32,000 bases of DNA from Mycobacterium sp. 852002-51057_SCH5723018 (GCF_001667035.1 NZ_LZIR01000096.1:60860-92859), one strand, 5' to 3'. Shown: positions 150 to 15,538, counted from the first letter of the stretch. Notes: generated from the sequence alone by a model not told the origin. Made by a program: numbers and translations.

Positions 150-163
150 AACCCGACGCGGGG

Positions 164-191
164 TGAACTGAAGTTACCCACGCGTCGTATT
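164..191 (+). promoter_or_regulatory. ECF (SigL-type) promoter motif TGAACT-N16-CGTATT
   Basis: TGAACT at 164-169, a 16-nt spacer, CGTATT at 186-191. It lies 14 nt after the anti-sigma stop and 7 nt before ATG 199. The same box, spacing and context occur at 12536-12563. Confidence 0.55.
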
Positions 192-198
192 ACAAGAC

Positions 199-1941
199 AT
201 GCCCAGAAAGCAGCGGGTGGTCGACCTCCTCGTCGAGCGTCTCGCCTCGATCGGCGTCGACCACATCTTCGGCGTGGACGGCGCCAACATCGAGGACCTC
301 TACGACGCCGCACACTTCCGGTCCGACATCACCGCGGTCCTGGCAAAGCACGAGTTCTCCGCCGCCACCATGGCCGACGGGTACAGCCGCAGCGGCGCCG
401 GGCTCGGCGTCGTGGCTGCCACCTCCGGTGGCGGGGCGCTGAATCTGGTAGCGGCCCTTGGGGAGTCGCTGACGAGCCGGGTGCCGGTGTTGGCTCTGGT
501 CGGGCAAGCCCCGACAGCCATGGACGGCCGCGGCAGCTTCCAGGACACCAGCGGCCAAAACGGATCGCTGAACGCGCAGGCGTTGTTTTCGGCGGTGTCG
601 GTGTCGTGTGAGCGGGTGCTCACGCCGTCGGGCGTCGCGCCGGCGCTGTCCCGGGCGATCGCCGCGGCGCGCACCGGTGGTCCGGCGGTCCTGTTGCTGC
701 CCAAGGACATTCAGCAGGGGTACCTGGAATGCGATCGGGATGGCTGTCCGCCGCAGAACCCGCGTCCCATCGGCAACCCCCAACCGATCGTCGGGGTCCT
801 GCGCGACGCCGACGGCCCGGTCACGATCATCGTCGGCGAGCAGGTGGCCCGCGACGACGCCCGCGCCGAGCTGGAAGCGCTGCGGGCGGTGCTGCGGGCG
901 CGGGTGGCGACAGTCCCGGACGCCAAGGACGTGGCCGGCACGCCGGGTCTCGGGTCCTCGTCCGCGCTCGGGGTGACCGGAGTCATGGGCCACCCCGGTG
1001 TGGCCGAAGCGGTGGCCGGCAGCGCGGTGTGCCTGGTGGTCGGCACCCGCCTGTCGGTCACCGCGCGCACCGGGCTCGACGACGCCCTGGCGGCGGTGCC
1101 GACCGTCTCGATCGGCTCGGCGCCACCGTATGTTCCGGCCACCCACGTGCACACCGACGACCTGCGCGGCTCGCTGCGAATGCTGACCCAGGCGCTGTCC
1201 GGCACCGGACGGCCGACGCGGGTGCGGGTGCCCGACATGGTGCGTCGCACCGAACTGGCCCCGCCGCCGTTCGCCGGCTCGGGCGTGCGCTATCGCGACG
1301 CGATGGCGGTGCTGGACGGCTGCCTGCCCGACGGGACGGACATCGTGGTCGACGCCGGCAACACCGGCGCGGCGGCGATCCACTACCTGCCGGCACGGCG
1401 GGGCGGCAGGTTCGCGGTCGCGCTGGGCATGGGCGGCATGGGCTACAGCTTCGGCGCCGGCATCGGCATGGCCTTCGGGCGCGCCAACAGCGGACGGCCC
1501 GGTGGGCGCACCGTGGTGATCGCCGGTGACGGGGCGTTCTACATGCACGGCATGGAGGTCCACACCGCGGTGCAGTACCGGCTGCCGGTGACGTTCGTGT
1601 TGTTCAACAACAACGCCCACGCCATGTGCGTGACGCGCGAGCAGCTGTTCTACGACGACCTGTACAGCTATAACCGGTTCCACGCCAGCCAGCTGGGTGC
1701 TGGGTTGGCGGGCATGTTCCCCGGCCTGACGTCCGTCGACGTCGGCGACCTCGACGGCCTCGCCGCGGCCATGCGTGCGGCGCTGGCCGTCGACGGCCCG
1801 GCCGTGGTCAGCGTCGAATGCGCCGCCGACGAGATGCCGCCCTTCGCACCGTTTCTCACCCAGGCGTCGGCCAAAGCGACCGGCGCACAGGAGATTCCAA
1901 CCGCAAAGGAGAACCGGACCGATGTCGCTGCTAGCGCTTGA
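199..1941 (+). CDS. Thiamine diphosphate-dependent enzyme (acetolactate synthase / 2-oxoacid decarboxylase-carboligase superfamily)
   Basis: 580-aa ORF. The N-terminal pyrimidine-binding domain has the conserved Glu context LAKHEFSAATMADGYSR. The ThDP/Mg motif is GDG-x24-NN (GDGAFYMHGMEVHTAVQYRLPVTFVLFNNN). Confidence 0.9.
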   Translation: MPRKQRVVDLLVERLASIGVDHIFGVDGANIEDLYDAAHFRSDITAVLAKHEFSAATMADGYSRSGAGLGVVAATSGGGALNLVAALGESLTSRVPVLALVGQAPTAMDGRGSFQDTSGQNGSLNAQALFSAVSVSCERVLTPSGVAPALSRAIAAARTGGPAVLLLPKDIQQGYLECDRDGCPPQNPRPIGNPQPIVGVLRDADGPVTIIVGEQVARDDARAELEALRAVLRARVATVPDAKDVAGTPGLGSSSALGVTGVMGHPGVAEAVAGSAVCLVVGTRLSVTARTGLDDALAAVPTVSIGSAPPYVPATHVHTDDLRGSLRMLTQALSGTGRPTRVRVPDMVRRTELAPPPFAGSGVRYRDAMAVLDGCLPDGTDIVVDAGNTGAAAIHYLPARRGGRFAVALGMGGMGYSFGAGIGMAFGRANSGRPGGRTVVIAGDGAFYMHGMEVHTAVQYRLPVTFVLFNNNAHAMCVTREQLFYDDLYSYNRFHASQLGAGLAGMFPGLTSVDVGDLDGLAAAMRAALAVDGPAVVSVECAADEMPPFAPFLTQASAKATGAQEIPTAKENRTDVAASA

Positions 1942-2584
1942 GGACATCCCCACACCCATTGACGGCGTAACGCGAATCGAAACGAGCCCCCGGGAGAAGG
2001 CCACCCCGATCATCATGGACATGATGCGGTCGGTCTACCCGCACGATCAGGTCTTCGGGGAATACTGCACCGTCAACGATTACGTCGACTGTCCGCCCGA
2101 CGAGCTGTACGAATACATGGCCGACACGCGCAGCCTGGAGGAGTGGACCTACAGCCTGCGTGGCTTCACCCCCACCGACGAACCGGGCCTGTGGCTGGCC
2201 TACGACCGGCTCGGCTCGGAGACCAAGATCTACACCCACACCATCGCCAACCCACAAGCCCGGACCGTCGACTACCACTGCGCCTGGGATCAGGGCAAGC
2301 ACCTGTGGATGGTCTACCTGATGCGCGTCATCGACGCGCAGGTGGTGCTCGACAAGCCCGGTTCGGTTGTGCTGTGGACGAATTGCCATCACCCGTTCTA
2401 CGACAAAAACCCGTACCCGGAGACGGCTCCGCCGCAGCGCCCGGTGTGGGTCGGCGACTTCTGGGACATGTTCGGCGCCGGCCATCTGCTGGAGCTGAAG
2501 AACCTCAAGGCGATCGCCGAGTACCGCCACCGCAACGGGCTTCCGGTGACACCCGATTGGATGCGGCGAAAAGGGGAGCAATGA
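1922..2584 (+). CDS. Conserved hypothetical protein, possibly SRPBCC/START-like (polyketide-cyclase-like) fold
   Basis: ATG 1922 is preceded by AAGGAGA about 10 nt upstream and overlaps the ThDP gene end by 20 nt (the track start 1775 is rejected). 220 aa. It is about 80% identical to 12766-13437 (34 mismatches in 180 aligned residues, counted by eye, mostly conservative), which supports real coding. The fold assignment is a guess from size and sequence pattern. Confidence 0.8.
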   Translation: MSLLALEDIPTPIDGVTRIETSPREKATPIIMDMMRSVYPHDQVFGEYCTVNDYVDCPPDELYEYMADTRSLEEWTYSLRGFTPTDEPGLWLAYDRLGSETKIYTHTIANPQARTVDYHCAWDQGKHLWMVYLMRVIDAQVVLDKPGSVVLWTNCHHPFYDKNPYPETAPPQRPVWVGDFWDMFGAGHLLELKNLKAIAEYRHRNGLPVTPDWMRRKGEQ

Positions 2585-3603
2585 TGACCACGCCGAGCGT
2601 CAGCCTGATCGACGTCTCCACCTATCTGCCCGGGGAACCGATCGGCGCCGACTACTACGCGCAATTCGCCGAATCCGATGAGCTGCGGGACAACATCATG
2701 TTCCGGGCGCCCAGCTTCCGCCATCACGTCGCGCCGGACGAGAGTTCGATCGACATGATCGAGAGCGCGGCGCAGGGCCTGATCGAGCGGCACGGCCACG
2801 ACGTCGTCGAAGGCGCCGACGTGCTGATCACCCACACGCAGGTGCCCGACATGGCGTTCTACGGCCAAGGGGCCGGCATCGCGCACCGGCTGGGCATGCG
2901 GCCCTCCTGGGTGCTCGACCTGAACAACGGCGGGTGCGGGGCATTCGTGTTGGCGCTCAACGTGGCTCGCAAACTGCTGACGGCGGGCGAGGGGCGCACC
3001 GCGCTGATCGCCATCGCGCAAAACGCCGCCGGGCAGTTCTTCGACCAACCGACGATTCGGCGCAAGGCGCAGTCGGCGGTGCCCGGCGACGGGGCGGCGG
3101 TGGGGCTGGTCACGCTGTCCGACCAGTCACCCATCCTGGATGTCGAGTGCCGCACGTACGGCGAGTACGCCGGTGAAATGACGCTTTCGTTCGATCCGCC
3201 GCGCAAGTGGTGGCAGCCCGGGTCCGGCGAGGGCTCCATCGGCTTCACCGACAGCAAGATCACCAAGGTGCTGGCCCGCGGCAACCGGCAGGTCCCCGAG
3301 GTCGCGCTGGCGGTATGTGACCGAATCGGCCTGGCCGCCAAAGACATTGATCTGTTGGTCACCAACCAGCCCAACCGCGCGTTCCTGCGCAACTGGCGCG
3401 ACGCGCTCGAATTGCCGCCCGAACGCCATCGGGACACTTTCGATCAGTGTGGCAACCTGTTCGGCGCCGGAATCCCGATCAACCTCGACCACGCGATAGC
3501 CGACCGTCAGGTCAAGGCCGGCGACGTGGTCCTGATGGCGGCCTTCGCCCACGCCGGCGACTTCGCCGGCGCGGCGGCCGTGCGCTGGGGAGGGCGAGAC
3601 TGA
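2581..3603 (+). CDS. KAS III (FabH)-like condensing-enzyme family protein with a non-canonical active site
   Basis: ATG 2581 has GGGGAG upstream and an ATGA overlap with the previous stop. 340 aa. The active-site Cys context is LNNGGCGAFVLAL and the C-terminal Asn motif is CGNLFGAGIP. The position of the FabH HQAN motif reads VTNQPN. Confidence 0.9.
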   Translation: MMTTPSVSLIDVSTYLPGEPIGADYYAQFAESDELRDNIMFRAPSFRHHVAPDESSIDMIESAAQGLIERHGHDVVEGADVLITHTQVPDMAFYGQGAGIAHRLGMRPSWVLDLNNGGCGAFVLALNVARKLLTAGEGRTALIAIAQNAAGQFFDQPTIRRKAQSAVPGDGAAVGLVTLSDQSPILDVECRTYGEYAGEMTLSFDPPRKWWQPGSGEGSIGFTDSKITKVLARGNRQVPEVALAVCDRIGLAAKDIDLLVTNQPNRAFLRNWRDALELPPERHRDTFDQCGNLFGAGIPINLDHAIADRQVKAGDVVLMAAFAHAGDFAGAAAVRWGGRD

Positions 3604-4655
3604 TGCAACCCGTCCCGGGTCTGTTCGCCGCCGAGATCGACGAGGCGTTTCCCAACGCCGACGATCCGCTCGCCTTGTCGCTCAACGAGAATCCGTTTCC
3701 GCCGCTGCCGGCGGTGCGGTCGGCGTTGATCCGTTCGATCTACGCGGCCAACCGGTATCCGGAGTTCCTGCCGGAACGGCTGCGCGGCTTGATCGCGGGC
3801 CATGTCGGGGTGCCCGCCGACCACGTGGTGCTGGGCGCCGGCGCGACGGGCGTGGCGTTGCAGGCCCTGCACGCGCTGACCGCGCCGGGTGACGCGATAG
3901 CCATGGCGGCGCCGAACTTCGACGGGTATCCGATCATCGCGCAAATGGCGCGGCTGAACCCGCTGACCGTCCCGCTCGGCAGCGACGGCCACAACGACCT
4001 CGACGGGCTGGCCGACGCCGCCGCAAGCGCCCGCGTGGTGGTGGTGTGCCGCCCGCACAACCCGACCGGCACGCTGGAGCCCGTCGCCGAGCTGTTGGGG
4101 TTCCTGCGCCGGGTACCGGGCGACACCATCGTGCTGCTCGACGAGGCCTACATCGAGTTCGCCGCGCCCGAGCTCCGGGTCGACGTCGCGGCGTTGCTCG
4201 CCCAGTTTCCCAACGTGGTGGTGCTTCGGACGTTCTCCAAGGCGTACGGGCTGGCCGGGCTGCGGATCGGTTACGGGCTGGCGGCACCGGGGCTGGCTCG
4301 CACGCTGTGGTCCCAGCAGCTGCCGTTCGGCATCGCGCTCACCAGTTTGCTGGCGGTCGCGTCGTCCTATCAAGCCGAAGATCAACTGCTGCAACGGATC
4401 CAGTCGATCAACGCCGAACGTCGCTATCTGCGGATGCGGCTGAGCGCGTTGGGGATATACACCACAGACGCCCACGCGAACTTCATGTACCTGCCTTCGA
4501 GGGGTCGGCGGGACAGGTCGTGGCATGAGGTGTTCGCCGACAGCGGACTCCACGTCCGCCACTACGGCGACGGGGGCGCGCGGATCACCGTGGGCAACCG
4601 CGCGTCGACGCTGGCGGTGCTGTCCGCGATAGGAAAGACCTCGCTTCGGCCGTAG
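3603..4655 (+). CDS. PLP-dependent aminotransferase, class I/II (HisC / aromatic aminotransferase-like)
   Basis: TGATG overlap with the KAS III-like gene. 350 aa. Motifs: LSLNENPFPP, CRPHNPTG and the PLP-lysine motif RTFSKAYGLAGLRIGY. Confidence 0.9.
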   Translation: MQPVPGLFAAEIDEAFPNADDPLALSLNENPFPPLPAVRSALIRSIYAANRYPEFLPERLRGLIAGHVGVPADHVVLGAGATGVALQALHALTAPGDAIAMAAPNFDGYPIIAQMARLNPLTVPLGSDGHNDLDGLADAAASARVVVVCRPHNPTGTLEPVAELLGFLRRVPGDTIVLLDEAYIEFAAPELRVDVAALLAQFPNVVVLRTFSKAYGLAGLRIGYGLAAPGLARTLWSQQLPFGIALTSLLAVASSYQAEDQLLQRIQSINAERRYLRMRLSALGIYTTDAHANFMYLPSRGRRDRSWHEVFADSGLHVRHYGDGGARITVGNRASTLAVLSAIGKTSLRP

Positions 4656-4672
4656 ATGCGGTAAGAAAGGGC

Positions 4673-5176
4673 GTGGGCGCCTCACGATCCAAACGTGATC
4701 CGATCGCCGCGGCGCGCGACAACTGGGAGCGCGCCGGGTGGGGTGACGTGTCGCCGGGCATGGTCGCGGTCACCTCGGTGATGCGTGCCCATCAGATCCT
4801 GCTGGCGCGCGTCGAGGCCGCGTTGCGTCCCTACGACTTGAGTTTCTCCCGGTACGAGTTGTTGCGGCTGCTGGCGTTCAGCCGTACCGGAGCGCTGCCC
4901 ATCACCAAGGCGTCCGATCGCTTGCAGGTGCACGTCACCAGCGTCACCCACGCCATCCGCCGGCTGGAGGCCGACGGGCTGGTGCAGCGGGTGCCGCACC
5001 CCACCGACGGGCGCACCACGCTGGTGCAGATCACCGACCTCGGCCGGTCCACGGTCGAGGACGCCACCGTGACGCTCAACGAGCAGGTGTTCGCCGACAT
5101 CGGCATGGAAGCCAGCGAGTCGGAAGCGCTGGTGTCGTCCATAGAAACGTTGCGGCGCAACGCGGGCGATTTCTGA
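4673..5176 (+). CDS. MarR-family transcriptional regulator
   Basis: GTG 4673; 167 aa. It shows a winged-helix pattern (LSFSRYELLRLL ... LPITKASDRLQVHVTSVTHAIRRLEADGLVQRVPHPTDGRTTLVQIT). Confidence 0.85.
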   Translation: MGASRSKRDPIAAARDNWERAGWGDVSPGMVAVTSVMRAHQILLARVEAALRPYDLSFSRYELLRLLAFSRTGALPITKASDRLQVHVTSVTHAIRRLEADGLVQRVPHPTDGRTTLVQITDLGRSTVEDATVTLNEQVFADIGMEASESEALVSSIETLRRNAGDF

Positions 5177-5203
5177 ATCGGTGGCGCGCGTGGTCACATC
5201 CGT

Positions 5204-5234
5204 CCCACTTGTCCCGCCGCGGGCAAAAAGTGGG
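5204..5234. terminator. Hairpin between convergent MarR and mmsB genes (possible bidirectional terminator)
   Basis: CCCACTT (5204-5210) pairs with AAGTGGG (5228-5234), and there is internal GC pairing (cccgc/gcggg). It sits in the 113-nt gap between two convergent stops. There is no clear U-tract. Confidence 0.35.
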
Positions 5235-5289
5235 TTGCAGTCCTCGCAGGTGACAATGTGGCGTTTGTGAATACCGTTGCGGCAGTGCG

Positions 5290-6168
5290 TCAGCGCAGCA
5301 TCTCGATGACCGCGCTGAAGTCCTTGCCGGCGTGGGAGGCGTCGGACGCGATGAACTCTGCATAGATCTCGGCGGCGTGGGTGCCCAGCGGCGCCGCAGA
5401 ACCGGTCGAGACCACCGCGTCCATCGCCAGGGCCAGGTCCTTGTTCATCAGCGCGGTCGCGAAGCCCGGCTTGAAGTCGTTGTTGGCCGGCGAGGTCGGC
5501 ACCGGGCCCGGCGCCGGGCAGTTGGTGTGCACCGCCCAGCAGTTCCCCGTCGCGCCGGTGATGACGTCGAACAGCGACTGCGCCGACAGTCCCAGCTTCT
5601 CGGCAAGGACGAACGCCTCGCCGATCACGATCTGCTGCACCGCCAGCACCATGTTGTTGCACACCTTGGCGGCCTGTCCCGCCCCGGCCGCGCCGCAGTG
5701 AATGATCTTGCCCGCCATCGGTTCCAGCACAGGTCGCGCTCGCTCCAGCGCGGCCTCGTCGCCGCCCACCATGAACGCCAGCGTCCCGGCGACGGCGCCC
5801 TTGACCCCGCCCGAGACCGGCGCGTCCAGCTGCGAGACGCCGTGCGACTCGGCGAGCGCGTGCACCTCGCGCGCGTCGTTGACCGAGATCGTGGAGCTGT
5901 CGATGAACAGCGCGCCCGCCTTGGCGGCGGGCAGGATGTCGGCGTAGCAGCGTTTGACGATGTCGCCGTTGGGCAGCATGGTGATGGCCACGTCGGCATC
6001 AGCGACCGCGTCGGCGGCGGTGTCGAACATCGCGACCCCGGCAGTCGTTGCGGCGGCCGCCGCCGTGGGCACCGGGTCGTACCCGCCCACGGTGTGGCCG
6101 GCGGCAACGAGATTGGCGGACATGGGGCCGCCCATGTTGCCCAGCCCCAGGAACGCGATTGCCGTCAT
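5290..6168 (-). CDS. mmsB: 3-hydroxyisobutyrate dehydrogenase
   Basis: 292 aa with the N-terminal Rossmann motif IAFLGLGNMGGPMSANL. It is the last gene of an mmsA-fadE9-mmsB string, as in M. tuberculosis Rv0753c-Rv0751c. Confidence 0.9.
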   Translation of the reverse strand: MTAIAFLGLGNMGGPMSANLVAAGHTVGGYDPVPTAAAAATTAGVAMFDTAADAVADADVAITMLPNGDIVKRCYADILPAAKAGALFIDSSTISVNDAREVHALAESHGVSQLDAPVSGGVKGAVAGTLAFMVGGDEAALERARPVLEPMAGKIIHCGAAGAGQAAKVCNNMVLAVQQIVIGEAFVLAEKLGLSAQSLFDVITGATGNCWAVHTNCPAPGPVPTSPANNDFKPGFATALMNKDLALAMDAVVSTGSAAPLGTHAAEIYAEFIASDASHAGKDFSAVIEMLR

Positions 6169-6186
6169 TGACCCTCCTGCGCCCGC

Positions 6187-7353
6187 TCAAGAAGCCCTGA
6201 ACCGGGCGGCCTCTGCCCGGCCGATGACCACCCGCATGATTTCATTGGTCCCTTCCAGGATCCGATGCACCCGCAGATCGCGCAGGATCTTCTCCACACC
6301 GTACTCGCGCAGGTAACCGTAGCCGCCGTGCAGTTGCAGCGCCTTGTCGGCGACCTCGAAGCAGGTGTCGGTGACATAGCGCTTGGCCATCGCGCACAGT
6401 TCGACCTTGTCGGGGTCATTGGCGTCGAGGGCATTTGCCGCCCGCCACAACATCATTCGCGAGGTCTCAAGCCCGGTCGCCATGTCGGCCAGGGTGAACC
6501 GCACGGTCGGCTCGTCGAGCAGGGCTGAGCCGAACGCCTCCCGCTCCCGCACATACGCGCCCGCTTTGTCGAAGGCCGACTGCGCGCCGCCCAGCGAGCA
6601 CGCCGCGATGTTGAGCCGTCCGCCGTTGAGCCCGTTCATCGCGATGCCGAAGCCCGCCCCCTCGCCGTCGAGCCCGCCCAGCATCGCGTCGGCCGGCACC
6701 CGCACGCCCTCCAGGATCACCTGGGCGGCGGGCGGGGGGTGGCCGCCCATCTTCTCCTCGAGCGCACCGAAACTCAGCCCCTCGGAGCCCTTTTCGACGA
6801 CAAAGGCCGAGATGCCGCGCGGGCCCGGTCTTTCTGGACCGCCGGTTCTTGCCATCACCACGTACACGTCCGAGGCGCCCGCGCCGGAAATGAACTGCTT
6901 GACACCGTCGAGCACGTAGTCGCCGCCGTGCTTGACGGCGCGGGTGCTCAGCGCGCTGGCGTCCGACCCGGCGCCCGGTTCGGTGAGGCAGTAGCTGGCG
7001 ATGACGTCCATCGAGGCCAATCGCGGAACCCAGGCCTTGCGCTGTTCGGGGGTGCCGAAGGTGTCGATCATCCACGCGCACATGTTGTGGATGGACAGGA
7101 ACGCCGCCGTGACGGGGTCGGCGATCGCCAGCTGCTCGAAGATCCGGACCCCGTCGAGCCGGCGCAGCCCGCTGCCGCCGACGTCGTCGCGGCAGTAGAT
7201 CGCCGCCATGCCGAGTTCGGCGGATTCCCGCAACACGTCCGTCGGGAAGTGCTTGGTGGCATCCCATTCCAGGGCGTGCGGGGCGAGGCGCTTGGCGGCG
7301 AACGCGGCGGCCGTCTCGGTGATGACCCGTTCGTCGTCATTCAAAGTAAACAT
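6187..7353 (-). CDS. fadE9: Acyl-CoA dehydrogenase (isobutyryl-CoA dehydrogenase-like)
   Basis: 388 aa with ACAD patterns (YCLTEPGAGSD; the C-terminal QLHGGYGYLREYGVEKILRDLRVHRILEGTNEIM). It starts 4 nt after the mmsA stop. The symbol is assigned by synteny. Confidence 0.88.
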   Translation of the reverse strand: MFTLNDDERVITETAAAFAAKRLAPHALEWDATKHFPTDVLRESAELGMAAIYCRDDVGGSGLRRLDGVRIFEQLAIADPVTAAFLSIHNMCAWMIDTFGTPEQRKAWVPRLASMDVIASYCLTEPGAGSDASALSTRAVKHGGDYVLDGVKQFISGAGASDVYVVMARTGGPERPGPRGISAFVVEKGSEGLSFGALEEKMGGHPPPAAQVILEGVRVPADAMLGGLDGEGAGFGIAMNGLNGGRLNIAACSLGGAQSAFDKAGAYVREREAFGSALLDEPTVRFTLADMATGLETSRMMLWRAANALDANDPDKVELCAMAKRYVTDTCFEVADKALQLHGGYGYLREYGVEKILRDLRVHRILEGTNEIMRVVIGRAEAARFRAS

Positions 7354-7357
7354 CGTT

Positions 7358-8878
7358 CTAATTCATGGTGGGGATGACGAATTCGGCGCCGTCCTTGATG
7401 CCCGACGGCCACCGCGACGTCACCGTCTTGACCTTGGTGTAGAACTGGATCGACGTCGGACCGTGCTGGTTGAGGTCGCCGAAGCCGGAGCGCTTCCAGC
7501 CGCCGAAGGTGTGGTAGGCCACCGGGACCGGGATCGGCACGTTGACGCCGACCATGCCCACCTGCACCCGGGAGATGAAGTCGCGAGCGGTGTCACCGTC
7601 GCGGGTGAAGACCGCCACACCGTTGCCGTACTCATGCTCCGACGGCAGCCGCAGGGCCTCCTCGTAATCGTGCGCGCGCACCATGCACAGCACCGGGCCG
7701 AAGATCTCGTCGGTGTAGATCGACATGTCGGGGGTGACGTGGTCGAACAGGGTGGGGCCGATGAAGAAGCCGCCCTCGAGGTTGGCGTCACCAAAAGTCA
7801 GATCGTCGCTGGCCCGCTCACGGCCGTCGATGACGATTTCGGCGCCCGCCTCGGCGCCCTGGCCGATGTAGTCGCGCACCCGCGCCAGGGCGGCCTCGGT
7901 GACCAGCGGGCCGTAGTCGGCCTTGGGGTCCAGGCTGTGCCCGACGCGCAGGTTGTTGATCCGCTCGATCAGCCTGGCGCGCAACCGATCCGCGGTCTGC
8001 TCCCCGACGGGCACCGCGACGCTGATCGCCATGCAGCGTTCGCCGGCGCTGCCGTACCCGGCGCCGATCAGCGCGTCGACGGCCTGATCCAGGTCGGCGT
8101 CGGGCATCACGATCATGTGGTTCTTGGCGCCGCCGAAGCACTGCGACCGCTTGCCGGTCGCCGCGGCCGTCGAGTAGATGTACTGCGCGATGTCGGAGCT
8201 GCCGACGAAACCCACCGCCTGGATGTCGGCATGGTGCAGGATGGCGTCGACGGCCTCCTTGTCGCCGTGCACGACCTGGAACACCCCCGGGGGCAGGCCG
8301 GCCTCTCCGAACAACTCGGCCAGCCGCACCGGGACCGACGGGTCGCGCTCACTGGGCTTGAGGATGAACGCGTTTCCGCACGCCAGGGCCGGTCCGGCCT
8401 TCCACAGTGGGATCATCGCCGGGAAGTTGAACGGGGTGATGCCGGCCACGACGCCCAGCGGTTGCCGCAGGGAGTAGACGTCGATTCCGGGACCGGCGCC
8501 CTCGCTGTACTCGCCCTTGAGCAGGTGCGGGATGCCGATGCAGAACTCGATCACCTCGATGCCGCGCTGGATGTCGCCGCGTGCGTCGGGCACCGTCTTG
8601 CCGTGCTCGAGGGACAGCAGCTCGGCCAGCTCGTCACTGTTCTTGTTGACCAGCTCGACGAAGCGCATCATCACCCGGGCGCGACGCTGCGGATTCCAAG
8701 CCGCCCAGCCTTTTTGGGCCTCGACGGCCGAGGCGACCGCCGCGTCGACGTCGGCCTTGCCGGCCATCGGAACCTCGGCCTGCACCTGCCCGGTGCTGGG
8801 GTTGAAGACGTCGGCGGTGCGGGTGGACTGGCCGGCGGTGCGCTTCCCATCGATGAAGTGCGGGATCTGTGTGGTCAT
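7358..8878 (-). CDS. mmsA: Methylmalonate-semialdehyde dehydrogenase (CoA-acylating)
   Basis: ATG 8878 (MTTQIPHFIDGKR); 506 aa. It belongs to the ALDH superfamily with the catalytic Cys context GSAGERCMA. The long upstream extension in the ORF track (to 9154) is rejected. Confidence 0.92.
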   Translation of the reverse strand: MTTQIPHFIDGKRTAGQSTRTADVFNPSTGQVQAEVPMAGKADVDAAVASAVEAQKGWAAWNPQRRARVMMRFVELVNKNSDELAELLSLEHGKTVPDARGDIQRGIEVIEFCIGIPHLLKGEYSEGAGPGIDVYSLRQPLGVVAGITPFNFPAMIPLWKAGPALACGNAFILKPSERDPSVPVRLAELFGEAGLPPGVFQVVHGDKEAVDAILHHADIQAVGFVGSSDIAQYIYSTAAATGKRSQCFGGAKNHMIVMPDADLDQAVDALIGAGYGSAGERCMAISVAVPVGEQTADRLRARLIERINNLRVGHSLDPKADYGPLVTEAALARVRDYIGQGAEAGAEIVIDGRERASDDLTFGDANLEGGFFIGPTLFDHVTPDMSIYTDEIFGPVLCMVRAHDYEEALRLPSEHEYGNGVAVFTRDGDTARDFISRVQVGMVGVNVPIPVPVAYHTFGGWKRSGFGDLNQHGPTSIQFYTKVKTVTSRWPSGIKDGAEFVIPTMN

Positions 8879-9061: not shown

Positions 9062-10249
9062 ATGGCGACGGAGATCCGGGACAGCCCCGACGCGGTTGTC
9101 ATCGGCGCGGGGCCCGCCGGCCTGGCTGTCGCACGCCAACTCGACTATCGGCATGGCATGAAAGCGCTCGTCGTTGACCGCGCGACGGCCCCGGGGATTT
9201 CATGGCGCACGCGCTACGACAACTTCCGCCTCAACACGACCGGGTTCTTGTCGCACCTGCCCGGGCAACGGATTCCGTTGAACGCCGGGCGTTGGCCGAC
9301 CAAGGAGGACATGGTCCGCTATTTCGACAGCTACGTTCAACGACAGAACATCGCAGTCAAGCTCGGATGTGACGTCCACCGCATCGATCGTGAAGAGCGA
9401 GTCTGGCGACTCGCCACATCGTCGGGTGAGATTCGAACCCCGGCAATCGTTCTGGCGACCGGCAACTACAGGACACCCACCATTCCTGACTGGCCCGGAC
9501 TGAGCCGTTTCAACGGCGTTATCGTGCACTCCGGGCACTTCACAAACGCTTGGCCCTACCGCGGTCGCGACGTCCTCGTCGTCGGCGCGGGCAATTCGGC
9601 CGCCGACATCGCGGTTCAGCTCGTCTATGACGGCGCGCGACGGGTTTGGCTCGCAGTGCGCACGCCGCCGCACCTCGTGCGGCGGTCTCTCGGGCCGTTT
9701 CCATCCGACATCTTCCTCGAGCTGTTCTCGAGAGTTCCCGCGCGCATGGTCGATCCGCTGATCGCGCGCATGAACCGCCTGATGTGGGGGGACCTGACGG
9801 CCTACGGCTTCGCTCGGCCAACCCTCGGGCTCAAGGCGACGGTGGAGACTAGAGGCCGTATCCCGACGCTGGCCGACGAGCTGATCGACGTCGTGCGGGC
9901 CGGGCTCGTCGAGGTCGTCGGCGCCGTCGAGGCGATCGACTCCGACGGCGTGATCCTCAGCGACGGCAGATCCGTAGCGCCGCAGGTGATCATCGCCGCC
10001 ACCGGGTTCGGCCCGGATCTCGACGGTTTGGTCGGGCACCTCGGCGTCCTCGACGAGCACGGCAACCCGCGCGGCGGCTTTGCCTCGCACGTCGGCAACG
10101 GAATGTTCGCGATCGGATACGGCATTCCGCCCAACGGCCCGCTGCGCGCGATCCGCATCAGCGCGACGCGATTGGCCCGGCAGGTGGCCGGATACCTCGC
10201 GAAGACCCAGCTAAAAACTAAGGCGTACAATGACTTTACCTTCCTATAA
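9062..10249 (+). CDS. NAD(P)/FAD-dependent flavin-containing monooxygenase-like oxidoreductase
   Basis: ATG 9062 has GGGAG 8 nt upstream. 395 aa. There are two dinucleotide-binding motifs: VVIGAGPAGLAVA (FAD) and VLVVGAGNSAADIAV (NADPH). Confidence 0.85.
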   Translation: MATEIRDSPDAVVIGAGPAGLAVARQLDYRHGMKALVVDRATAPGISWRTRYDNFRLNTTGFLSHLPGQRIPLNAGRWPTKEDMVRYFDSYVQRQNIAVKLGCDVHRIDREERVWRLATSSGEIRTPAIVLATGNYRTPTIPDWPGLSRFNGVIVHSGHFTNAWPYRGRDVLVVGAGNSAADIAVQLVYDGARRVWLAVRTPPHLVRRSLGPFPSDIFLELFSRVPARMVDPLIARMNRLMWGDLTAYGFARPTLGLKATVETRGRIPTLADELIDVVRAGLVEVVGAVEAIDSDGVILSDGRSVAPQVIIAATGFGPDLDGLVGHLGVLDEHGNPRGGFASHVGNGMFAIGYGIPPNGPLRAIRISATRLARQVAGYLAKTQLKTKAYNDFTFL

Positions 10250-11567
10250 GACCTTTTTCCGTGGCGCGGACGGTTACGAACGAGCCCGTCGGGAAACGGT
10301 GTGGAATGGACTTGTCCCGGATCGCTTTCCCGATGTCATCGTGCAGGCGCACGACACCGACGACGTGGTCGCGGCGATCCGTTATGCGCGGACCCACGGA
10401 TGCCAGGTCGGTGTACGTTCGGGCGGGCACAGCTGGACGGCCAGCCACCTACGCGACGGTGGACTGCTGCTCGACGTCAGCCGCCTCGACCACTGCACTG
10501 TCGAACCGGATCGGATGACCGCAGAGGTCGGCCCGGGCAAGGTCGCCAGCGTCTTCGCGGCAGAGCTGGACACCCAAGGGCTGTTCTTCCCCGCCGGCCA
10601 CTGCGAAGGCATCTGCCTCGGCGGCTATCTCTTGCAGGGCGGCTACGGCTGGAACGGTCCGGTGCTCGGGCCGGCATGCGAGAGCGTGCTAGGGCTGAAA
10701 GTCGTCACCGCCGACGGTGAACAGATTTACTGCGACCCCGAAAACCATCCAGACATGTATTGGGCGGCTCGCGGCGCCGGACCGGGCTTCTTCGGCGTGG
10801 TCACCTCGTTCAAGCTGCGGGTGCACCCACGTCCCCCGGTCTGGGGCACCTGCCTTTACATGTATCCGATCGAGGTTGCCGACGAGGTGTTCAGCTGGGG
10901 ACGCTCGATCATTCCTGAGCTCGACGACCGGGTCGAATTGCAGATCCACACCGCGCGCAGCTTTCCGGGAGCCGGGCTCAACCAACCCGGCATCACGATC
11001 GCCTCGCCAGTATTCGCCGACTCGGAGGACGAGGCGCTGAAAGCCCTTGCCCCGCTGGGCACTTGCCCGGTCATCGACAAGGCGATCGTCAGCCTCCCTT
11101 ATGCGCCGACAACTTTGGCCAATTGGTACACCGCCGTGATGACCAGCTACCCGAAGGGATTTCGCTACATCGCCGACAACATGTTCACCTCGGCTTCGGC
11201 CGAAGAACTAACGCCGGGCATCCGCAAGATCATCGAAACCATGCCACCGCACCCCTCGCACTTCATCTTCACGGGCTGGAAGACGGCCCCGGAGCGCGCG
11301 GACATGGTGTACGGGGTGGAAGACGAGGTCTACATGGCCCTCTACACCATCTGGCAGGATCCGGCCGACGATGATCGGTACCGCGACTGGGCCGCGTCCA
11401 ACATGGCGGCGATGTCGCACCTGGCGACCGGCAGCTCGCTCGCCGACGAAAATCTATGCCGGCGTCCGGCGCGATACATCGCCGAGTCGAACATGGCACG
11501 CCTCGACAAGGTGCGCCTGGCATACGACCCGGATGGTCGTTTCCACAGCTGGATGAGCGGGGTCTGA
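10230..11567 (+). CDS. FAD-linked oxidase (PCMH-type FAD-binding domain, BBE/VAO-like)
   Basis: 445 aa. The motif VGVRSGGHSW is typical of FAD-linked oxidases that can attach the flavin covalently through His. The start overlaps the FMO gene end by 20 nt, so a later start is possible. Confidence 0.85.
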   Translation: MTLPSYKTFFRGADGYERARRETVWNGLVPDRFPDVIVQAHDTDDVVAAIRYARTHGCQVGVRSGGHSWTASHLRDGGLLLDVSRLDHCTVEPDRMTAEVGPGKVASVFAAELDTQGLFFPAGHCEGICLGGYLLQGGYGWNGPVLGPACESVLGLKVVTADGEQIYCDPENHPDMYWAARGAGPGFFGVVTSFKLRVHPRPPVWGTCLYMYPIEVADEVFSWGRSIIPELDDRVELQIHTARSFPGAGLNQPGITIASPVFADSEDEALKALAPLGTCPVIDKAIVSLPYAPTTLANWYTAVMTSYPKGFRYIADNMFTSASAEELTPGIRKIIETMPPHPSHFIFTGWKTAPERADMVYGVEDEVYMALYTIWQDPADDDRYRDWAASNMAAMSHLATGSSLADENLCRRPARYIAESNMARLDKVRLAYDPDGRFHSWMSGV

Positions 11568-11616
11568 CCGCCGGGGCGGCTTGAAACTCGGCTAACCGTG
11601 GCGGGTGTGCCACGGG

Positions 11617-11644
11617 TGAACCAGACAGGCGCTTCGGTCGTTTC
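11617..11644 (+). promoter_or_regulatory. ECF (SigL-type) promoter motif TGAACC-N16-CGTTTC
   Basis: TGAACC at 11617-11622, a 16-nt spacer, CGTTTC at 11639-11644. It lies in the 212-nt gap upstream of the second anti-sigma gene and 16 nt before a 40-codon ORF (11661-11783). Confidence 0.5.
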
Positions 11645-11779
11645 ACCAGCAGGAAGGTAAATGGAGCGCCTATTCCCAAGGCGCTCTACGACGGACCCGC
11701 CCCGGCGGCCGCCCGGAATGGCCTTCAGCTACGAAAACCCTTACGTACCAAGAAATATCCCACGAGACGGGAGTATACG

Positions 11780-12520
11780 ATGATGCCGCTATGGCGGCCC
11801 GGGACACCGATCGGCGGTGACCTATCCGGGCATGACGAGTACGCGATGTGGGATGCCGCATACGTGCTGGGATCTCTATCGTCCCCAGAAAGGCGGGAAT
11901 TCGAAGCGCACCTGCCCGAGTGTCTGTTGTGCCGCAGCGACGTCGGCGAGCTCAACGGCATCCCGGCCCTCCTGTCGCAGCTGGAGCGCGACGAGGTGGC
12001 GGTGATCGCCCAGGTCGGCGGCGCAGAACTGTCGCCACCCGACGAGTTGCTGCCGTCCCTGCTGGTCAAAGTGCACTGGCGGCGGCGCCGGTCCCGCATC
12101 GTGGCCTGGACGGCTGGGACCGCGGCAGCCGCGGTCCTCGCGATCGGTGTGTTCGTCGGCGTCACGGGCCAACCCTCGACGTCCGTGCCCATGCCGCCGC
12201 AGGCGAGCGTGGCGGTACAGCCGATGACACAGGTCGGAACCGACAAGCTCGCCTCGACGATCTCGCTCAGCAGCCAGCGGTGGGGAACGTCCATCTCGAT
12301 GAGCTGCGTCTGTCTGGCCCCGCTGAACGCCCATCACGACACGTTGGCGATGGTTGTGGTAGGTCGTGACGGTAGCCACACGCGGATGGCAACCTGGGTG
12401 GCAAATCCGGGTCACACGGCGATGCCCGCCGGCAGCATTTCAACACATGTCGATCAAATCGCTTCTGTGCAGGTGATTTCCGCCGACGACGGCCAGGTCC
12501 TCCTGGAGCGTTCGCTGTGA
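11780..12520 (+). CDS. Zinc-associated (HxxxCxxC) membrane anti-sigma factor, RslA paralogue, with no adjacent sigma gene
   Basis: 246 aa with GGGAG upstream. The ZAS motif is EFEAHLPECLLCRSD. A basic stretch RRRRSR is followed by one TM helix (IVAWTAGTAAAAVLAIGVFVGV) and an extracytoplasmic C-terminal domain. The C-terminus aligns to 1-149. Confidence 0.85.
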   Translation: MMPLWRPGTPIGGDLSGHDEYAMWDAAYVLGSLSSPERREFEAHLPECLLCRSDVGELNGIPALLSQLERDEVAVIAQVGGAELSPPDELLPSLLVKVHWRRRRSRIVAWTAGTAAAAVLAIGVFVGVTGQPSTSVPMPPQASVAVQPMTQVGTDKLASTISLSSQRWGTSISMSCVCLAPLNAHHDTLAMVVVGRDGSHTRMATWVANPGHTAMPAGSISTHVDQIASVQVISADDGQVLLERSL

Positions 12521-12535
12521 ATTTCCTACCCCGAG

Positions 12536-12563
12536 TGAACTGAAGTCACCCGCGGCTCGTGTT
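12536..12563 (+). promoter_or_regulatory. ECF (SigL-type) promoter motif TGAACT-N16-CGTGTT
   Basis: TGAACT at 12536-12541, a 16-nt spacer, CGTGTT at 12558-12563, 15 nt after the anti-sigma stop. It aligns with the box at 164-191 (gtgaactgaagtYacccRcg...tcgtRttac). Confidence 0.55.
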
Positions 12564-12591
12564 ACCGGGAGTTACGAAGTTAGGCAGGCAG

Positions 12592-12666
12592 ATGGCCAGG
12601 CAACACAGGGTGGTCGATCGTGTCGTCGAGCACGGTCGAACGTCGAATGCACTTAGCGTGCATTAG
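12592..12666 (+). pseudogene. Remnant of the ThDP-enzyme gene (internal deletion of about 1.6 kb)
   Basis: A 24-codon ORF, MARQHRVVDRVVEHGRTSNALSVH*. Its first 13 codons align to MPRKQRVVDLLVE of the gene at 199. The next stretch, acggtcgaacgtcgaatgc, resembles gtggtcagcgtcgaatgc near 1805-1822 of copy A, and similarity then decays. Confidence 0.6.
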
Positions 12667-12765
12667 ATTTCAACGCTGACACCGCCCGGGGGGTCGTCAG
12701 AATTGGCGGTAATGACCGACGTGGCAGCCGCCTTGTCTCAAATACTAATGAGGAGAACCGATTTC

Positions 12766-13437
12766 ATGTCCATTGCAGCGCTTGAAGATATCGCGGTCCA
12801 CAGCGGCACCACCGAGCCGATCGAGGGAGTGGTCCGTATCGAGACCTCGCCGCTTGAACAGACCGCCCCGACTTTCATGGCGAAGATGCGGTCGGTGTAT
12901 CCGCACGACGAGGTCTACGGCCAGTACTGCACGGTCAACGACTACGTCGACTGCCCACCCGATGAGCTGTTCGAATACCTGGCCGACACCCGCAGTCTCG
13001 AGGAGTGGACCTATACCCTGCGTGACTTCTCCCCGACCGCGGAGCCCGGGCTCTGGTTGGCCTACGACCGATTGCTCCCGGACACCAAGATCTACACCCG
13101 CACGGTGGCCAACGCCGAGGCCCGTACCGTCGACTATCACTGCGCGTGGGACCAGGGCAAGCACCTGTGGATGATCTATCTGATGCGGGTGGTCGACGCG
13201 CAGGATGTGCTCGGCAAGCCCGGTTCCGTTGTGCTGTGGACCAATTGCCGCCACCCGTTCTACGACCACAACCCTTATCCCGATGCCGCCCCGCCGGAGC
13301 GCACGGGCTGGGTGGGCGACTTCTGGGACATATTCGGAGTCGGTCACGCGCTGGAACTGAACAATCTCAAGTCAATCGCCGAATACCGCCACCGCAACGG
13401 CCTGCCGGTCAAGCCGGAATGGATGAGTACACCATGA
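12766..13437 (+). CDS. Conserved hypothetical protein, SRPBCC-like (paralogue of 1922-2584)
   Basis: ATG 12766 has GAGGAG 9 nt upstream (the track start 12703 is rejected). 223 aa; about 80% identical to copy A over the C-terminal 180 residues. Confidence 0.8.
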   Translation: MSIAALEDIAVHSGTTEPIEGVVRIETSPLEQTAPTFMAKMRSVYPHDEVYGQYCTVNDYVDCPPDELFEYLADTRSLEEWTYTLRDFSPTAEPGLWLAYDRLLPDTKIYTRTVANAEARTVDYHCAWDQGKHLWMIYLMRVVDAQDVLGKPGSVVLWTNCRHPFYDHNPYPDAAPPERTGWVGDFWDIFGVGHALELNNLKSIAEYRHRNGLPVKPEWMSTP

Positions 13438-14453
13438 ACCAACCCACCGTCAGCCTCGCCGACGTTTCCACCTATCTGCCCGGGGAACCCATCGCCGCCG
13501 ACTACTACGCGCAGTTCGCCGGCTCGGATGACCTGGCGTCCAACCTGATGTTCCGCGCGCCCAAGCTGCGTCATCACGTCGGGCCGGACGAAACCGCGAC
13601 CGATATGATCGAGCGAGCCGCACAGGGCCTGATCGAACGGCACGGCCACGACGTCATCGAAGGCGCCGACGTGTTGATCACCCACACCCAGGCACCCGAC
13701 CTGCCGTTCTATGGCGCCGGCGGGGGCGTCGCCCACCGGCTGGGCATGCGGCCGTCCTGGGTGCTCGACCTGCACAACGGTGGGTGCGCCGCTTTCGTGT
13801 TGGCGCTTAACGTCGCTCGTCAACTGTTGGCCTCAGGTTTGGGGCACACCGCGCTCATCGCCATCGCACAAAATGCCGCCGGCCAGGTCTTCGATCAGCC
13901 GGGAGTTCGGCGCAAGGCGCAGGCGGCGGTCCCCGGCGATGGCGCCGCGGTGGGCCTGGTCACCTTGTCCGACCGGTCGCCCATTCTCGATATCGAGTGC
14001 CGGACCTACGGCGAATACGCCGGTGAGATGACGCTCGCTTCGGACCCGCCCCGCAAGTGGTGGCAGCCCGGGGCCGGTGAGCTCTGCATCGGATTCACCG
14101 AAACCAAGATCACCAAGGTACTGGCTCGCGGCAATCGACAGGTCCCCGAGGTGGCGCTGGCCGTCTGTGATCGAATCGGCCTGCCGTCCAAGGACATCGA
14201 CCTGCTGGTCACAAATCAGCCCAACCGGGTGTTCCTGCGCAACTGGCGCGAGGCGCTCGACGTGCCGCGCGAACGTCATCGCGACACATTCGATGAGTGC
14301 GGCAACCTGTTCGGCGCGGGCATCCCGATCAACTTGGATCGCGCGATATCGGACGGTCAGGTCAAGGCCGGTGACGTCGTGATGATGGCCGCCTTCGCGC
14401 ACGCCGGCGACTTCGCGGGTGCGGCGGCGGTGCGCTGGGGCGGACGAAGCTGA
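13434..14453 (+). CDS. KAS III (FabH)-like family protein (paralogue of 2581-3603)
   Basis: ATG 13434 has an ATGA overlap with the previous stop (alternative ATG at 13419). 339 aa. It has the same Cys context (LHNGGCAAFVLAL), the same VTNQPN in place of HQAN, and CGNLFGAGIP. Confidence 0.9.
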   Translation: MNQPTVSLADVSTYLPGEPIAADYYAQFAGSDDLASNLMFRAPKLRHHVGPDETATDMIERAAQGLIERHGHDVIEGADVLITHTQAPDLPFYGAGGGVAHRLGMRPSWVLDLHNGGCAAFVLALNVARQLLASGLGHTALIAIAQNAAGQVFDQPGVRRKAQAAVPGDGAAVGLVTLSDRSPILDIECRTYGEYAGEMTLASDPPRKWWQPGAGELCIGFTETKITKVLARGNRQVPEVALAVCDRIGLPSKDIDLLVTNQPNRVFLRNWREALDVPRERHRDTFDECGNLFGAGIPINLDRAISDGQVKAGDVVMMAAFAHAGDFAGAAAVRWGGRS

Positions 14454-15502
14454 TGCTACCCCTGCTGGAGGCCAGCCCCGTCACCGCCGGAATCCTCGAT
14501 GCGCTGCCGAACGCGACCGATCCATTCGCTTTGTCGCTCAACGAGAATCCGTTTCCACCGCTGCCGGGGGTGCGCTCGGCGCTGGTCCGCTCGATCGACG
14601 TCGCCAACCGGTATCCGGAGTTCCTGCCCGATCGGTTGCGCCGCCTGATCGCCGGTCATATCGGGGTTGGCGACGAGCAAGTCGTGCTCGGGGCGGGTGC
14701 AAGCGGCGTGGTGATGCAGGTCCTGCACGCCGTCACGCGGCCCGGTGATCGGATTGTGCTGAGCGAGCCGACTTTCGACGGTTATCCGATCTTCGCGAAG
14801 ATGGCCCGCCTGACATCGGTCACCGTTCCGCTCGATAAGCGCGGCCACCACAACCTGGACGCAATGGCCGATGCGGCGGCAGACGCCAGTGTCGTCGTCT
14901 TGTGTCGGCCCGACAACCCGACCGGCACCCTCGAACCGGTCGCGGACGTACAGCGCTTCCTGCGCAGGGTGCCGGGCGACACCGTCGTTTTGCTCGACGA
15001 GGCGTACATCGAGTTTGTTGTGCCCCAGCTCCGCATCGACGGACCCGACCTGATTCGCCGCTTTCCGAATGTCGTTGTGGTGCGCACGTTCTCCAAGGCA
15101 TATGGCTTGGCCGGTCTCCGCATCGGGTACGGGTTCTCCGCACCGGAACTGGCCAGCACACTGTGGGGGATGCAGTTGCCGTTCGGCATGGGCATCACAA
15201 GCCTGGTCGCGGTGGCGGCGTGCTACGACGCCGAAGACCAGCTGCGGCAACGCGTTCTGCGGATCACCGGAGAGCGCGATTACCTGTCCCGGCGCCTTCG
15301 GGCAAAGGGCGTATACACCACCGACGGGCACGCCAACTTCGTTTACCTGCCAGCGGCCCGGCGCCCCTGGTGCGAGGTGTTCGGCGACACCGGCCTGAAG
15401 GCCCGCTACTACCCTGACGGCGCCGCACGGATCACCGTCGGAAGCCGCGCGTCCACACAGGCGGTGCTGGCCGCAGTGGCCACGTCGCGGTCCGCTGGCT
15501 AG
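14453..15502 (+). CDS. PLP-dependent aminotransferase, class I/II (paralogue of 3603-4655)
   Basis: Same TGATG overlap as copy A. 349 aa. Motifs: LSLNENPFPP, CRPDNPTG, RTFSKAYGLAGLRIGY. Confidence 0.9.
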   Translation: MLPLLEASPVTAGILDALPNATDPFALSLNENPFPPLPGVRSALVRSIDVANRYPEFLPDRLRRLIAGHIGVGDEQVVLGAGASGVVMQVLHAVTRPGDRIVLSEPTFDGYPIFAKMARLTSVTVPLDKRGHHNLDAMADAAADASVVVLCRPDNPTGTLEPVADVQRFLRRVPGDTVVLLDEAYIEFVVPQLRIDGPDLIRRFPNVVVVRTFSKAYGLAGLRIGYGFSAPELASTLWGMQLPFGMGITSLVAVAACYDAEDQLRQRVLRITGERDYLSRRLRAKGVYTTDGHANFVYLPAARRPWCEVFGDTGLKARYYPDGAARITVGSRASTQAVLAAVATSRSAG

Positions 15503-15510
15503 TGCGGCGG

Positions 15511-15538
15511 TGAACTTCTCGTCGAAGTCCCGCGTGGT
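15511..15538 (+). promoter_or_regulatory. ECF (SigL-type) promoter-like motif TGAACT-N16-CGTGGT
   Basis: TGAACT at 15511-15516, a 16-nt spacer, CGTGGT at 15533-15538. It lies 8 nt after the aminotransferase stop and 19 nt before ATG 15558. It has the weakest -10 box of the five, and the predicted start site would fall at or near the AGGAGG RBS. Confidence 0.4.

Follow-up and report, generated by a model that had tools for sequence, protein, structure and literature searches.

In Mycobacterium tuberculosis the extracytoplasmic function (ECF) sigma factor SigL is required for virulence, and its small known regulon says little of its purpose. SigL-dependent promoters of this species were reportedly described by Hahn in 2005 and Dainese in 2006, and the zinc-binding anti-sigma (ZAS) switch formed by SigL and RslA is said to go back to Thakur in 2010; according to published work, RslA can be inactivated when its CxxC zinc site is oxidised, or by Rip1-dependent proteolysis. 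Cluster-situated ECF pairs also gate antibiotic clusters in Streptomyces and relatives, as with MibX/MibW for microbisporicin and sigma-AntA for antimycin. Here we analyse a stretch of 32,000 nucleotides from Mycobacterium sp. 852002-51057_SCH5723018 (GCF_001667035.1, NZ_LZIR01000096.1:60860-92859; the whole stretch is called the window), in which five TGAACY-N16-CGT sites, beginning at positions 164, 8980, 11617, 12536 and 15511, stand before a duplicated gene cassette, genes for tailoring enzymes and a second anti-sigma gene, rslA2. The five sites are very probably promoters read by RNA polymerase carrying SigL, whose gene, judging by synteny, would lie just upstream of the window. As such they are a well-supported extension of the known SigL system and not a new kind of regulation. 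In a literature search no publication dealing with this cluster came up, nor any describing a SigL regulon in species other than M. tuberculosis.

Crystal structures and mutational scanning have shown how SigL contacts its promoter boxes (Lin et al. 2019, PMC6372665). In that work the SigL holoenzyme transcribed the promoter of sigL itself, P-sigL, in vitro, which the SigA holoenzyme did not do efficiently, and base-by-base substitution yielded the -10 consensus T(-12) G(-11) N C/A(-9) A(-8) G(-7), following C(-14) G(-13); the strongest -10 preference in vitro was for G at -11, and SigL residues His54 and Asp60 set the specificity at -12 and -11 (PMC6372665). Natural SigL promoters of M. tuberculosis deviate from this consensus too (3/4 at -11, 2/4 at -8 and 2/4 at -7; PMC6372665). 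Our reference P-sigL came from an M. tuberculosis-complex contig with the order secY-adk-map-sigL-rslA-MarR, recovered using the SigL sequence of PDB 6DV9 as query. It reads TGAACC-aaactcttactcgact-CGTGTCAG with a 16-nt spacer, is the sole match to the motif in 13 kb, and served as the promoter in Lin et al. 2019, whose scaffold begins CGTGTCAGTAAGC (PMC6372665). An earlier note on the window, made from the sequence alone, had given a SigL consensus that agrees with both this promoter and the published analysis.

The window sites compare closely with this reference. Both boxes of site 8980 are identical to those of P-sigL, and this site agrees with all eight published -10 positions. P-sigL shares with the window system the -35 box (TGAACC in P-sigL), the 16-nt spacer and the arrangement of an autoregulated sigma gene with a co-transcribed anti-sigma gene. 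Across the M. tuberculosis SigL promoters (P-sigL, P-pks10, P-mpt53 and P-Rv1139c), the C-G-T start and the A at -8 are common to the window sites, whereas the window is less strict than the in vitro optimum TGN(C/A)AG, or departs from it, at -11 (G, T or A), -9 (C or T) and -7 (mostly C). CGT is present at 5/5 window sites because the search required it. Position -8 was left free by the search, and A occurs there at 5/5 sites, in line with the published A(-8), while G at -11 is found at 3/5, C or A at -9 at 2/5 and G at -7 at 2/5.

The sites stand out clearly from the rest of the window, which has a G+C content of ~67% and in which genes were called by third-position G+C together with Pfam and NCBIfam profiles. 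The exact pattern TGAACY-N16-CGT, searched on both strands of the 32 kb, matched five times and always on the plus strand, compared with 0.45 matches expected from dinucleotide shuffles (n=100), whose maximum was three and of which none (0/100) reached five. This bears out the statement in the earlier note that five hits were unlikely to be random. A class-balanced weight matrix, built from related loci only with the window's own sites left out and with spacers of 15-17 nt allowed, scored the five sites at 20.9-27.9 bits in a scan of both strands, the next best match in the 32 kb reaching 9.7 bits. Spacers of 15 or 17 nt or weaker boxes gave no extra site above that value in the window, and neither pattern nor matrix found the motif in its coding DNA, on its antisense strand or between 18 and 32 kb.

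All five sites are intergenic, have a spacer of exactly 16 nt and point at the next plus-strand gene. Site 164 lies 15 nt past the stop codon of rslA (147-149), site 8980 between the divergent mmsA (start at 8878, minus strand) and the flavin monooxygenase gene (ATG at 9062), site 11617 50 nt past the stop of the gene for a flavin adenine dinucleotide (FAD) oxidase, site 12536 16 nt past the rslA2 stop, and site 15511 9 nt past the stop of the second aminotransferase gene. Coordinates, strand, intergenic placement and spacers were all as first noted, and so were the distances from the six-base -10 box to the start codon at sites 164 (7 nt to ATG 199), 8980 (54 nt to ATG 9062) and 15511 (19 nt to ATG 15558). 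Sites 164 and 12536 are paralogues of each other (78% identity over 41 nt), so the five sites represent four independent promoter lineages.

Conservation was followed through a set of related loci (named by L-numbers) obtained by an RslA2 scan of species-representative genomes, which gave 76 loci and 1.35 Mb from M. nebraskense, M. interjectum, M. triplex, M. scrofulaceum, M. paraffinicum, M. asiaticum and many uncultured mycobacteria; most of them keep the gene order of the window. The exact motif occurred 245 times in this set, with ~19 occurrences expected at the window's chance rate, and 234 of the 245 matches fell outside called genes and 11 inside. Matches stood upstream of genes for thiamine pyrophosphate (TPP) enzymes (61; 56 on the strand of the anti-sigma gene and 5 in inverted arrangements), flavin monooxygenase (43; 40 and 3), rslA2 (40), hydroxylase (19) and sigL genes (~40). 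When every orthologue was counted irrespective of motif, the exact motif preceded 61/65 TPP genes, the remaining four being one base off, 39/42 monooxygenase genes, 40/42 rslA2 genes and 19/28 hydroxylase genes. In MAFFT alignments of such unselected upstream regions, the commonest base had a frequency of 0.91-0.95 across the -35 hexamer and 0.99-1.00 across CGT, compared with 0.70-0.75 in the spacer and 0.51-0.69 in the upstream flank. Beyond the search pattern, the matrix from the relatives showed A(-8) at 0.91, T(-10) at 0.77, T(-15) at 0.72, G(-11) at 0.66 (T at 0.26) and C(-7) at 0.50.

The association of motif, sigma gene and cassette extends past this set. The closest relative found, L078, has 88% DNA identity to window positions 1-5172 and the order secY-adk-map-sigL-rslA-TPP-SRPBCC-KAS III-aminotransferase-MarR (KAS III, ketoacyl-ACP synthase III), with the motif before both sigL and the TPP gene. 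SRPBCC homologues are ~75% identical in other genera, and Mycolicibacterium boenickei and Rhodococcus jostii each showed only two matches in ~16.7 kb, before a SigL-like sigma gene and before the TPP cassette. A cassette in Gordonia sp. (L080, 4044-10737) serves as a natural negative control: it lies beside a response regulator and a histidine kinase, with no nearby sigma/anti-sigma pair and no motif, and from this arrangement the same pathway appears to have come under the control of another kind of signalling.

Several lines of evidence point to SigL as the factor that reads the motif. The window does open, as the earlier note had proposed, with the end of an anti-SigL gene: this is the 3' end of rslA, the first copy (3..149, plus strand), whose 48 residues match the C-terminus of RslA from the M. 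tuberculosis complex at 90% identity. In the primary-type anti-sigma loci among the relatives, sigL always precedes the anti-sigma gene and the motif lies 30-60 nt before sigL; in all, 40 distinct sequences carry it before sigL1, sigL2 or sigL3 genes, and a motif in front of sigL itself is the signature of autoregulation. The sigL1 product of a related locus is ~90% identical to M. tuberculosis SigL over 171 residues (PDB 6dv9_F, E 7e-96) and passes the SigL-type NCBIfam model NF007227. SigL1 and SigL2 agree with M. tuberculosis SigL at His54, at Asp60 and throughout the region-4 helix EGTVKSRLHYA, so one SigL should read all such promoters, and we infer that the SigL of this organism transcribes the five sites. 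The match to P-sigL, the occurrence upstream of sigL, the conservation before orthologues and the recurrence across genera together favour the proposal, first made in the earlier note, of a single regulon gated by a sigma/anti-sigma pair.

Site 11617 (P3, 11617..11646, plus strand) reads TGAACC-N16-CGTTTCAC and has a history that the relatives reveal. Six genomes (L042-44, L047, L049 and L054) have an intact second sigL, with motif, between the FAD-oxidase gene and rslA2, and site 11617 is homologous to the promoter of these intact sigL2 genes; five genomes have a third sigL copy with its own motif. Where sigL2 is missing in the relatives, differing sigL2 fragments survive between the promoter and rslA2. 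The window has no sigma gene between the FAD-oxidase gene and rslA2, and no sigL2 remnant was found there by tblastn; the site is followed by a decayed region for the ribosome-binding site (RBS) and start, cagcaggaaggtaaat, compared with cagcaggaggtgaat before intact sigL2. Going by this homology, site 11617 is the former self-promoter of sigL2, which would now drive rslA2 alone. The initial description of five sites therefore needs qualification: all are real, two are duplicates of each other, and site 11617 is a relic promoter of the deleted sigL2.

The gene behind site 11617, rslA2 (11780..12520, plus strand), encodes an orphan zinc-binding anti-sigma factor with an H-x3-C-x2-C motif (AHLPECLLC) and one membrane helix. 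The protein is 64% identical to M. tuberculosis RslA over 234 residues, matches 3HUG_B at E 2.7e-24 and scores 22.1 bits on Pfam zf-HC2, just below the 22.2-bit cut-off. With the SigL-RslA ZAS switch (PDB 3HUG) it shares the zinc motif, an RslA-like sigma-binding domain and the membrane segment. An RslA-type gene would be expected directly downstream of its cognate sigma gene and co-transcribed with it; rslA2 differs in being an orphan whose partner sigL2 has been deleted, so that there are two anti-sigma factors per locally encoded SigL. Among 38 full-length orthologues the zinc motif is present in 37, and the median dN/dS (ratio of nonsynonymous to synonymous rates) is 0.33 for the whole gene, with 0.49 for the portion that binds the sigma factor and 0.24 for the outer portion. 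The gene is under purifying selection and is not decaying. The ~127-nt rslA2 leader, which is former sigL2 DNA, also holds an 8-bp G+C-rich hairpin at 11664-11686 (GAGCGCC-tattccc-AAGGCGCTC), with no T-run after it on the plus strand.

Several observations weigh against the reading of the sites as SigL promoters. First, sigL is outside the window, its presence being deduced from synteny with L078 and all 27 primary loci. Second, the base at -11 is A at site 164 and T at site 11617, where G is the most preferred (PMC6372665), and -7 is mostly C here as against the published G. Third, sites 164, 12536 and 15511 are only 9-16 nt behind a co-directional gene, without a terminator. Fourth, P5, the promoter at 15511, is absent in 8/28 orthologous loci. 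Lastly, the relatives are fairly close, so conservation partly reflects shared ancestry. No terminators were found between the co-directional units, terminator-like hairpins in the window being at chance level, and an Rfam search of the whole window returned no RNA family. Given the short gaps and the lack of terminators, read-through could contribute, and sites 164, 12536 and 15511 may be auxiliary, acting as internal booster promoters that add to read-through rather than as strict operon starts. The claim that each site lies directly upstream of an operon start thus holds as far as all are intergenic and precede the next gene, and is softened for these three.

Taken furthest, these points would mean that only some of the sites are active, with 164 and 11617 as decaying leftovers and read-through doing the work. 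We regard this as unlikely, although G at -11, from which both sites deviate, is the strongest specificity determinant in vitro (PMC6372665), and although site 11617 has lost its original gene in a run of co-directional genes without terminators. The rslA2 promoters as a class have T fixed at -11, with CGTTTCAC in most of 36 distinct sequences, and the promoters that precede intact sigL genes of the clade commonly have T or A at this position. The exactness of the rslA2 promoter in 40/42 loci, despite the decay of sigL2 in different ways, and the purifying selection on rslA2 itself also speak for an active site, and no other promoter is evident after the upstream FAD-oxidase gene.

A second alternative keeps the sites as ECF promoters and assigns them to another sigma factor, the candidate being the one encoded at 18219-18770 beside a Rieske-domain protein. 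Its gene lies directly downstream of the cluster, AAC at -35 and CGT at -10 are used by many ECF sigma factors, and a preference for CG was found in at least 8 of 10 M. tuberculosis ECF holoenzymes (PMC6372665). This sigma factor is nevertheless only 28% identical to SigL, fails NF007227 (53 bits against a cut-off of 202 bits) and is without the WQHPEV..GD residues that set specificity, and its own gene is not preceded by the motif. In contrast, the motif stands before sigL genes in 40 cases and is the same as that of the M. tuberculosis P-sigL validated by experiment. We rejected this factor as the reader of the motif, and consider it very improbable that any sigma factor other than SigL fills this role.

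We give scarcely any credence to a third possibility, in which the bipartite motif is not a promoter and instead is an operator for a DNA-binding regulator such as the neighbouring Rv0737-like MarR. Rv0737 and Ms_1492 do bind a ~280-bp fragment containing the sigL promoter in vitro (PMC13002591), and cassette A has a MarR gene behind it. Operators bound by MarR proteins are typically palindromic, whereas the motif is asymmetric, with a fixed 16-nt spacing, an orientation locked to the downstream gene and a short, constant distance to the RBS or start codon. Its boxes are those contacted by SigL in the crystal structures and mutational scans (PMC6372665), and an 'Ms_1488 promoter' was the non-bound control in the binding study (PMC13002591), the identity of Ms_1488 as the TPP gene being by numbering only and unverified. 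Finally, that the sites are chance matches amplified by the internal cassette duplication has a practically negligible probability: sites 164 and 12536 are indeed copies and the fixed core has just 8-9 bases, but even four independent sites exceed the shuffle maximum of three, the spacers of the TPP, monooxygenase, sigL-type and hydroxylase classes are unrelated, and the matrix scan, the conservation before orthologues and the recurrence in Rhodococcus effectively refute it.

With the sites read as SigL promoters, the locus suggests the following circuit. SigL would be held inactive by the membrane-anchored, zinc-binding RslA and, once RslA is inactivated, free SigL would bind core polymerase. 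Region 4 of SigL would then read TGAACY at -35 and, 16 bases on, region 2 would read CGT(G/T)TYA at -10, transcription being predicted to start ~5-7 nt past the -10 element. The five units together would form a SigL-gated small-molecule pathway plus a SigL-induced second anti-sigma factor, and RslA2, having no sigma factor of its own, would re-capture SigL in a probable negative feedback.

The first of these promoters, P1 (164..193, plus strand; 25.7 bits), has the -35 element TGAACT (164-169), a 16-nt spacer and the -10 element CGTATTAC (186-193), and would drive cassette A and probably the MarR gene behind it. All genes of this unit are on the plus strand. The TPP enzyme gene (199..1941) encodes an acetolactate-synthase-like protein with Pfam domains TPP_enzyme_N/M/C that stays below all NCBIfam equivalog cut-offs. 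It overlaps by 20 nt the gene for a 220-residue SRPBCC-family protein (1922..2584), which had no Pfam or NCBIfam match and is named from NCBI homologues called 'SRPBCC family protein'. A KAS III (FabH)-like condensing enzyme follows (2584..3603; Pfam ACP_syn_III and ACP_syn_III_C, NCBIfam FabH subfamily below cut-off), and then a HisC-like class I/II aminotransferase (3603..4655), the start ATG of which overlaps the KAS III stop. The MarR regulator gene (4673..5176; Pfam MarR, Rv0737-like) lies 18 nt past the cassette without a SigL site of its own and is syntenic with the MarR genes of L077 and L078. Since the cassette genes overlap or abut, with the 20-nt overlap followed by junctions ATGATGA and TGATG, each cassette forms one operon.

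Beyond the minus-strand genes mmsB, fadE9 and mmsA (5290-8878), P2 (8980..9009, plus strand; TGAACC-N16-CGTGTCAG) would drive, on the same strand, the genes for a flavin-containing monooxygenase-like enzyme (9062..10249; Pfam Pyr_redox_3, FMO-like) and for an FAD_binding_4 oxidase (10230..11567) that is weakly BagG/FevA-like by its Pfam and NCBIfam matches. P3 would drive rslA2. P4 (12536..12565, plus strand; TGAACT-N16-CGTGTTAC, 27.9 bits), the paralogue of P1, would drive the SRPBCC, KAS III and aminotransferase genes of cassette B (12767..13437, 13434..14453 and 14453..15502, all on the plus strand). P5 (15511..15540, plus strand; TGAACT-N16-CGTGGTAG, 20.9 bits) would drive the genes for an FAD-dependent aromatic-ring-type hydroxylase, HpxO/salicylate-hydroxylase-like by profile matches (15558..16805, plus strand), and for an O-methyltransferase (16798..17910, with a start at 16792, 16798 or 16810, plus strand; Pfam Methyltransf_2 and Dimerisation).

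The two cassettes have 77-81% DNA identity. Cassette B begins with a remnant of the TPP gene (12593..12667, plus strand), consisting of ~24 first codons (MARQHRVVD...) and then a stop, whereas nearly all relatives have an intact TPP gene between rslA2 and the second SRPBCC gene. By this comparison the TPP gene of cassette B was lost by a lineage-specific deletion, and cassette B would rely on the TPP enzyme of cassette A, provided one is needed. The enzyme set, comprising TPP carboligase-like and KAS III-like proteins, a HisC-type aminotransferase, an SRPBCC protein (cyclase/binding-fold), two flavin oxygenases, an FAD oxidase and an O-methyltransferase, presumably resembles acyloin-type aromatic natural-product pathways such as those to xenocyloins and scytonemin, a resemblance we take as a lead only.

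The promoters also differ in their distance to the gene. At P1 the ATG at 199 lies 5 nt past the -10 element (4 nt in L078, L058, L048, L076, L054 and L061), a geometry that predicts a probably leaderless TPP mRNA; leaderless mRNAs are common in mycobacteria. P4, the B-type copy, retains a leader of ~30 nt, and at P5 the RBS GGAGG starts ~6 nt past the -10 element, as it does in the sigL promoters. In the best-working SigL scaffold, the start point was a few bases past the last -10 base (PMC6372665).

The proposed output of SigL at this locus differs from its targets in M. tuberculosis, since here it consists of a duplicated TPP/SRPBCC/KAS III/aminotransferase cassette together with tailoring oxidoreductases and a methyltransferase. 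The cassette genes are absent between rslA and Rv0737 of M. tuberculosis, where the MarR gene directly follows rslA. The MibX/MibW and sigma-AntA systems likewise have one ECF sigma factor beside the cluster that activates several motif-sharing promoters including its own; they belong to another ECF group and use another motif, whereas the sigma gene here is a conserved gene of a housekeeping locus, as indicated by secY-adk-map, and was not acquired specifically with the cluster.

These comparisons invite a joint account that we hold tentatively, as somewhat less than an even bet. The ancestral job of SigL in the Mycobacteriales would have been to switch on a four-gene pathway downstream of sigL-rslA, which was lost in M. 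tuberculosis. In the lineage of the window the module, including the sigma and anti-sigma genes, would have been duplicated and have gained tailoring enzymes; the second sigma gene would then have decayed while RslA2, itself controlled by SigL, was retained by purifying selection to act on the one remaining SigL as a second brake or sensor, leaving two anti-sigma factors and one sigma factor to gate a metabolite.

The link between SigL and the cassette is kept in Rhodococcus as well as in mycobacteria of both slow and fast growth; M. tuberculosis itself lacks the cassette. This link offers a concrete and testable idea for the ancestral output of SigL/RslA, namely a small molecule, and indicates tractable model organisms, probably including M. 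smegmatis, in which MSMEG_1486-1492 may be the equivalent locus and MSMEG_1488-1491 the cassette, both going by gene numbering only and unverified. The orphan, SigL-driven anti-sigma gene would be a natural example of a duplicated sigma/anti-sigma module rewired after the loss of a partner. The understanding of how ECF promoters work is left unchanged.

Further SigL-type sites, absent in the window, were seen in some relatives. One falls within the last part of the TPP gene of cassette B, 27 nt before the SRPBCC gene (L033, L041-L044 and L047; for example L042 10561). Another is on the opposite strand, back-to-back with the TPP promoter of cassette A, in the M. nebraskense group (L050-L070; for example L055 16353, minus strand), and a third lies ~480 nt upstream of the monooxygenase gene (L012, L018, L023, L040 and L045; for example L012 6521).

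Downstream of the cluster, a short plus-strand open reading frame (17954-18186) that starts MHTIEADYLVVGAGAMG encodes the N-terminal FAD-binding fold of an oxidoreductase in ~77 codons and looks like a truncated gene fragment. It is followed by the ECF sigma gene at 18219-18770 (plus strand) and by a gene at 18773-19471 (plus strand) for a protein of 232 residues with a C-terminal Rieske [2Fe-2S] domain, possibly an anti-sigma factor; this pair follows the cluster in many relatives. A minus-strand gene at 21302-23011 encodes a PE-PGRS protein with glycine-rich repeats, the source of one of the repeat families seen in the window's DNA, and a C-terminal aspartyl-peptidase-like domain (Pfam PE, PGRS and PE-PGRS_C). 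Two tandem luciferase-like monooxygenase genes (25488-26354 and 26389-~27300, minus strand) have 70-74% DNA identity and adjoin a gene at 28769-30568 in which a response-regulator receiver is fused to a pyridine-nucleotide-disulphide oxidoreductase. At the right end of the window lie infA (30709-30930), rpsM (31264-31638) and rpsK (31639-31998), all on the plus strand. In the relatives secY-adk-map lies just left of sigL, and with infA-rpsM-rpsK on the right this places the whole ~31 kb between map and infA, within a ribosomal-protein region that is usually contiguous; the segment contains sigL-rslA, both cassettes, the PE-PGRS gene, rmlB/rmlC and more.

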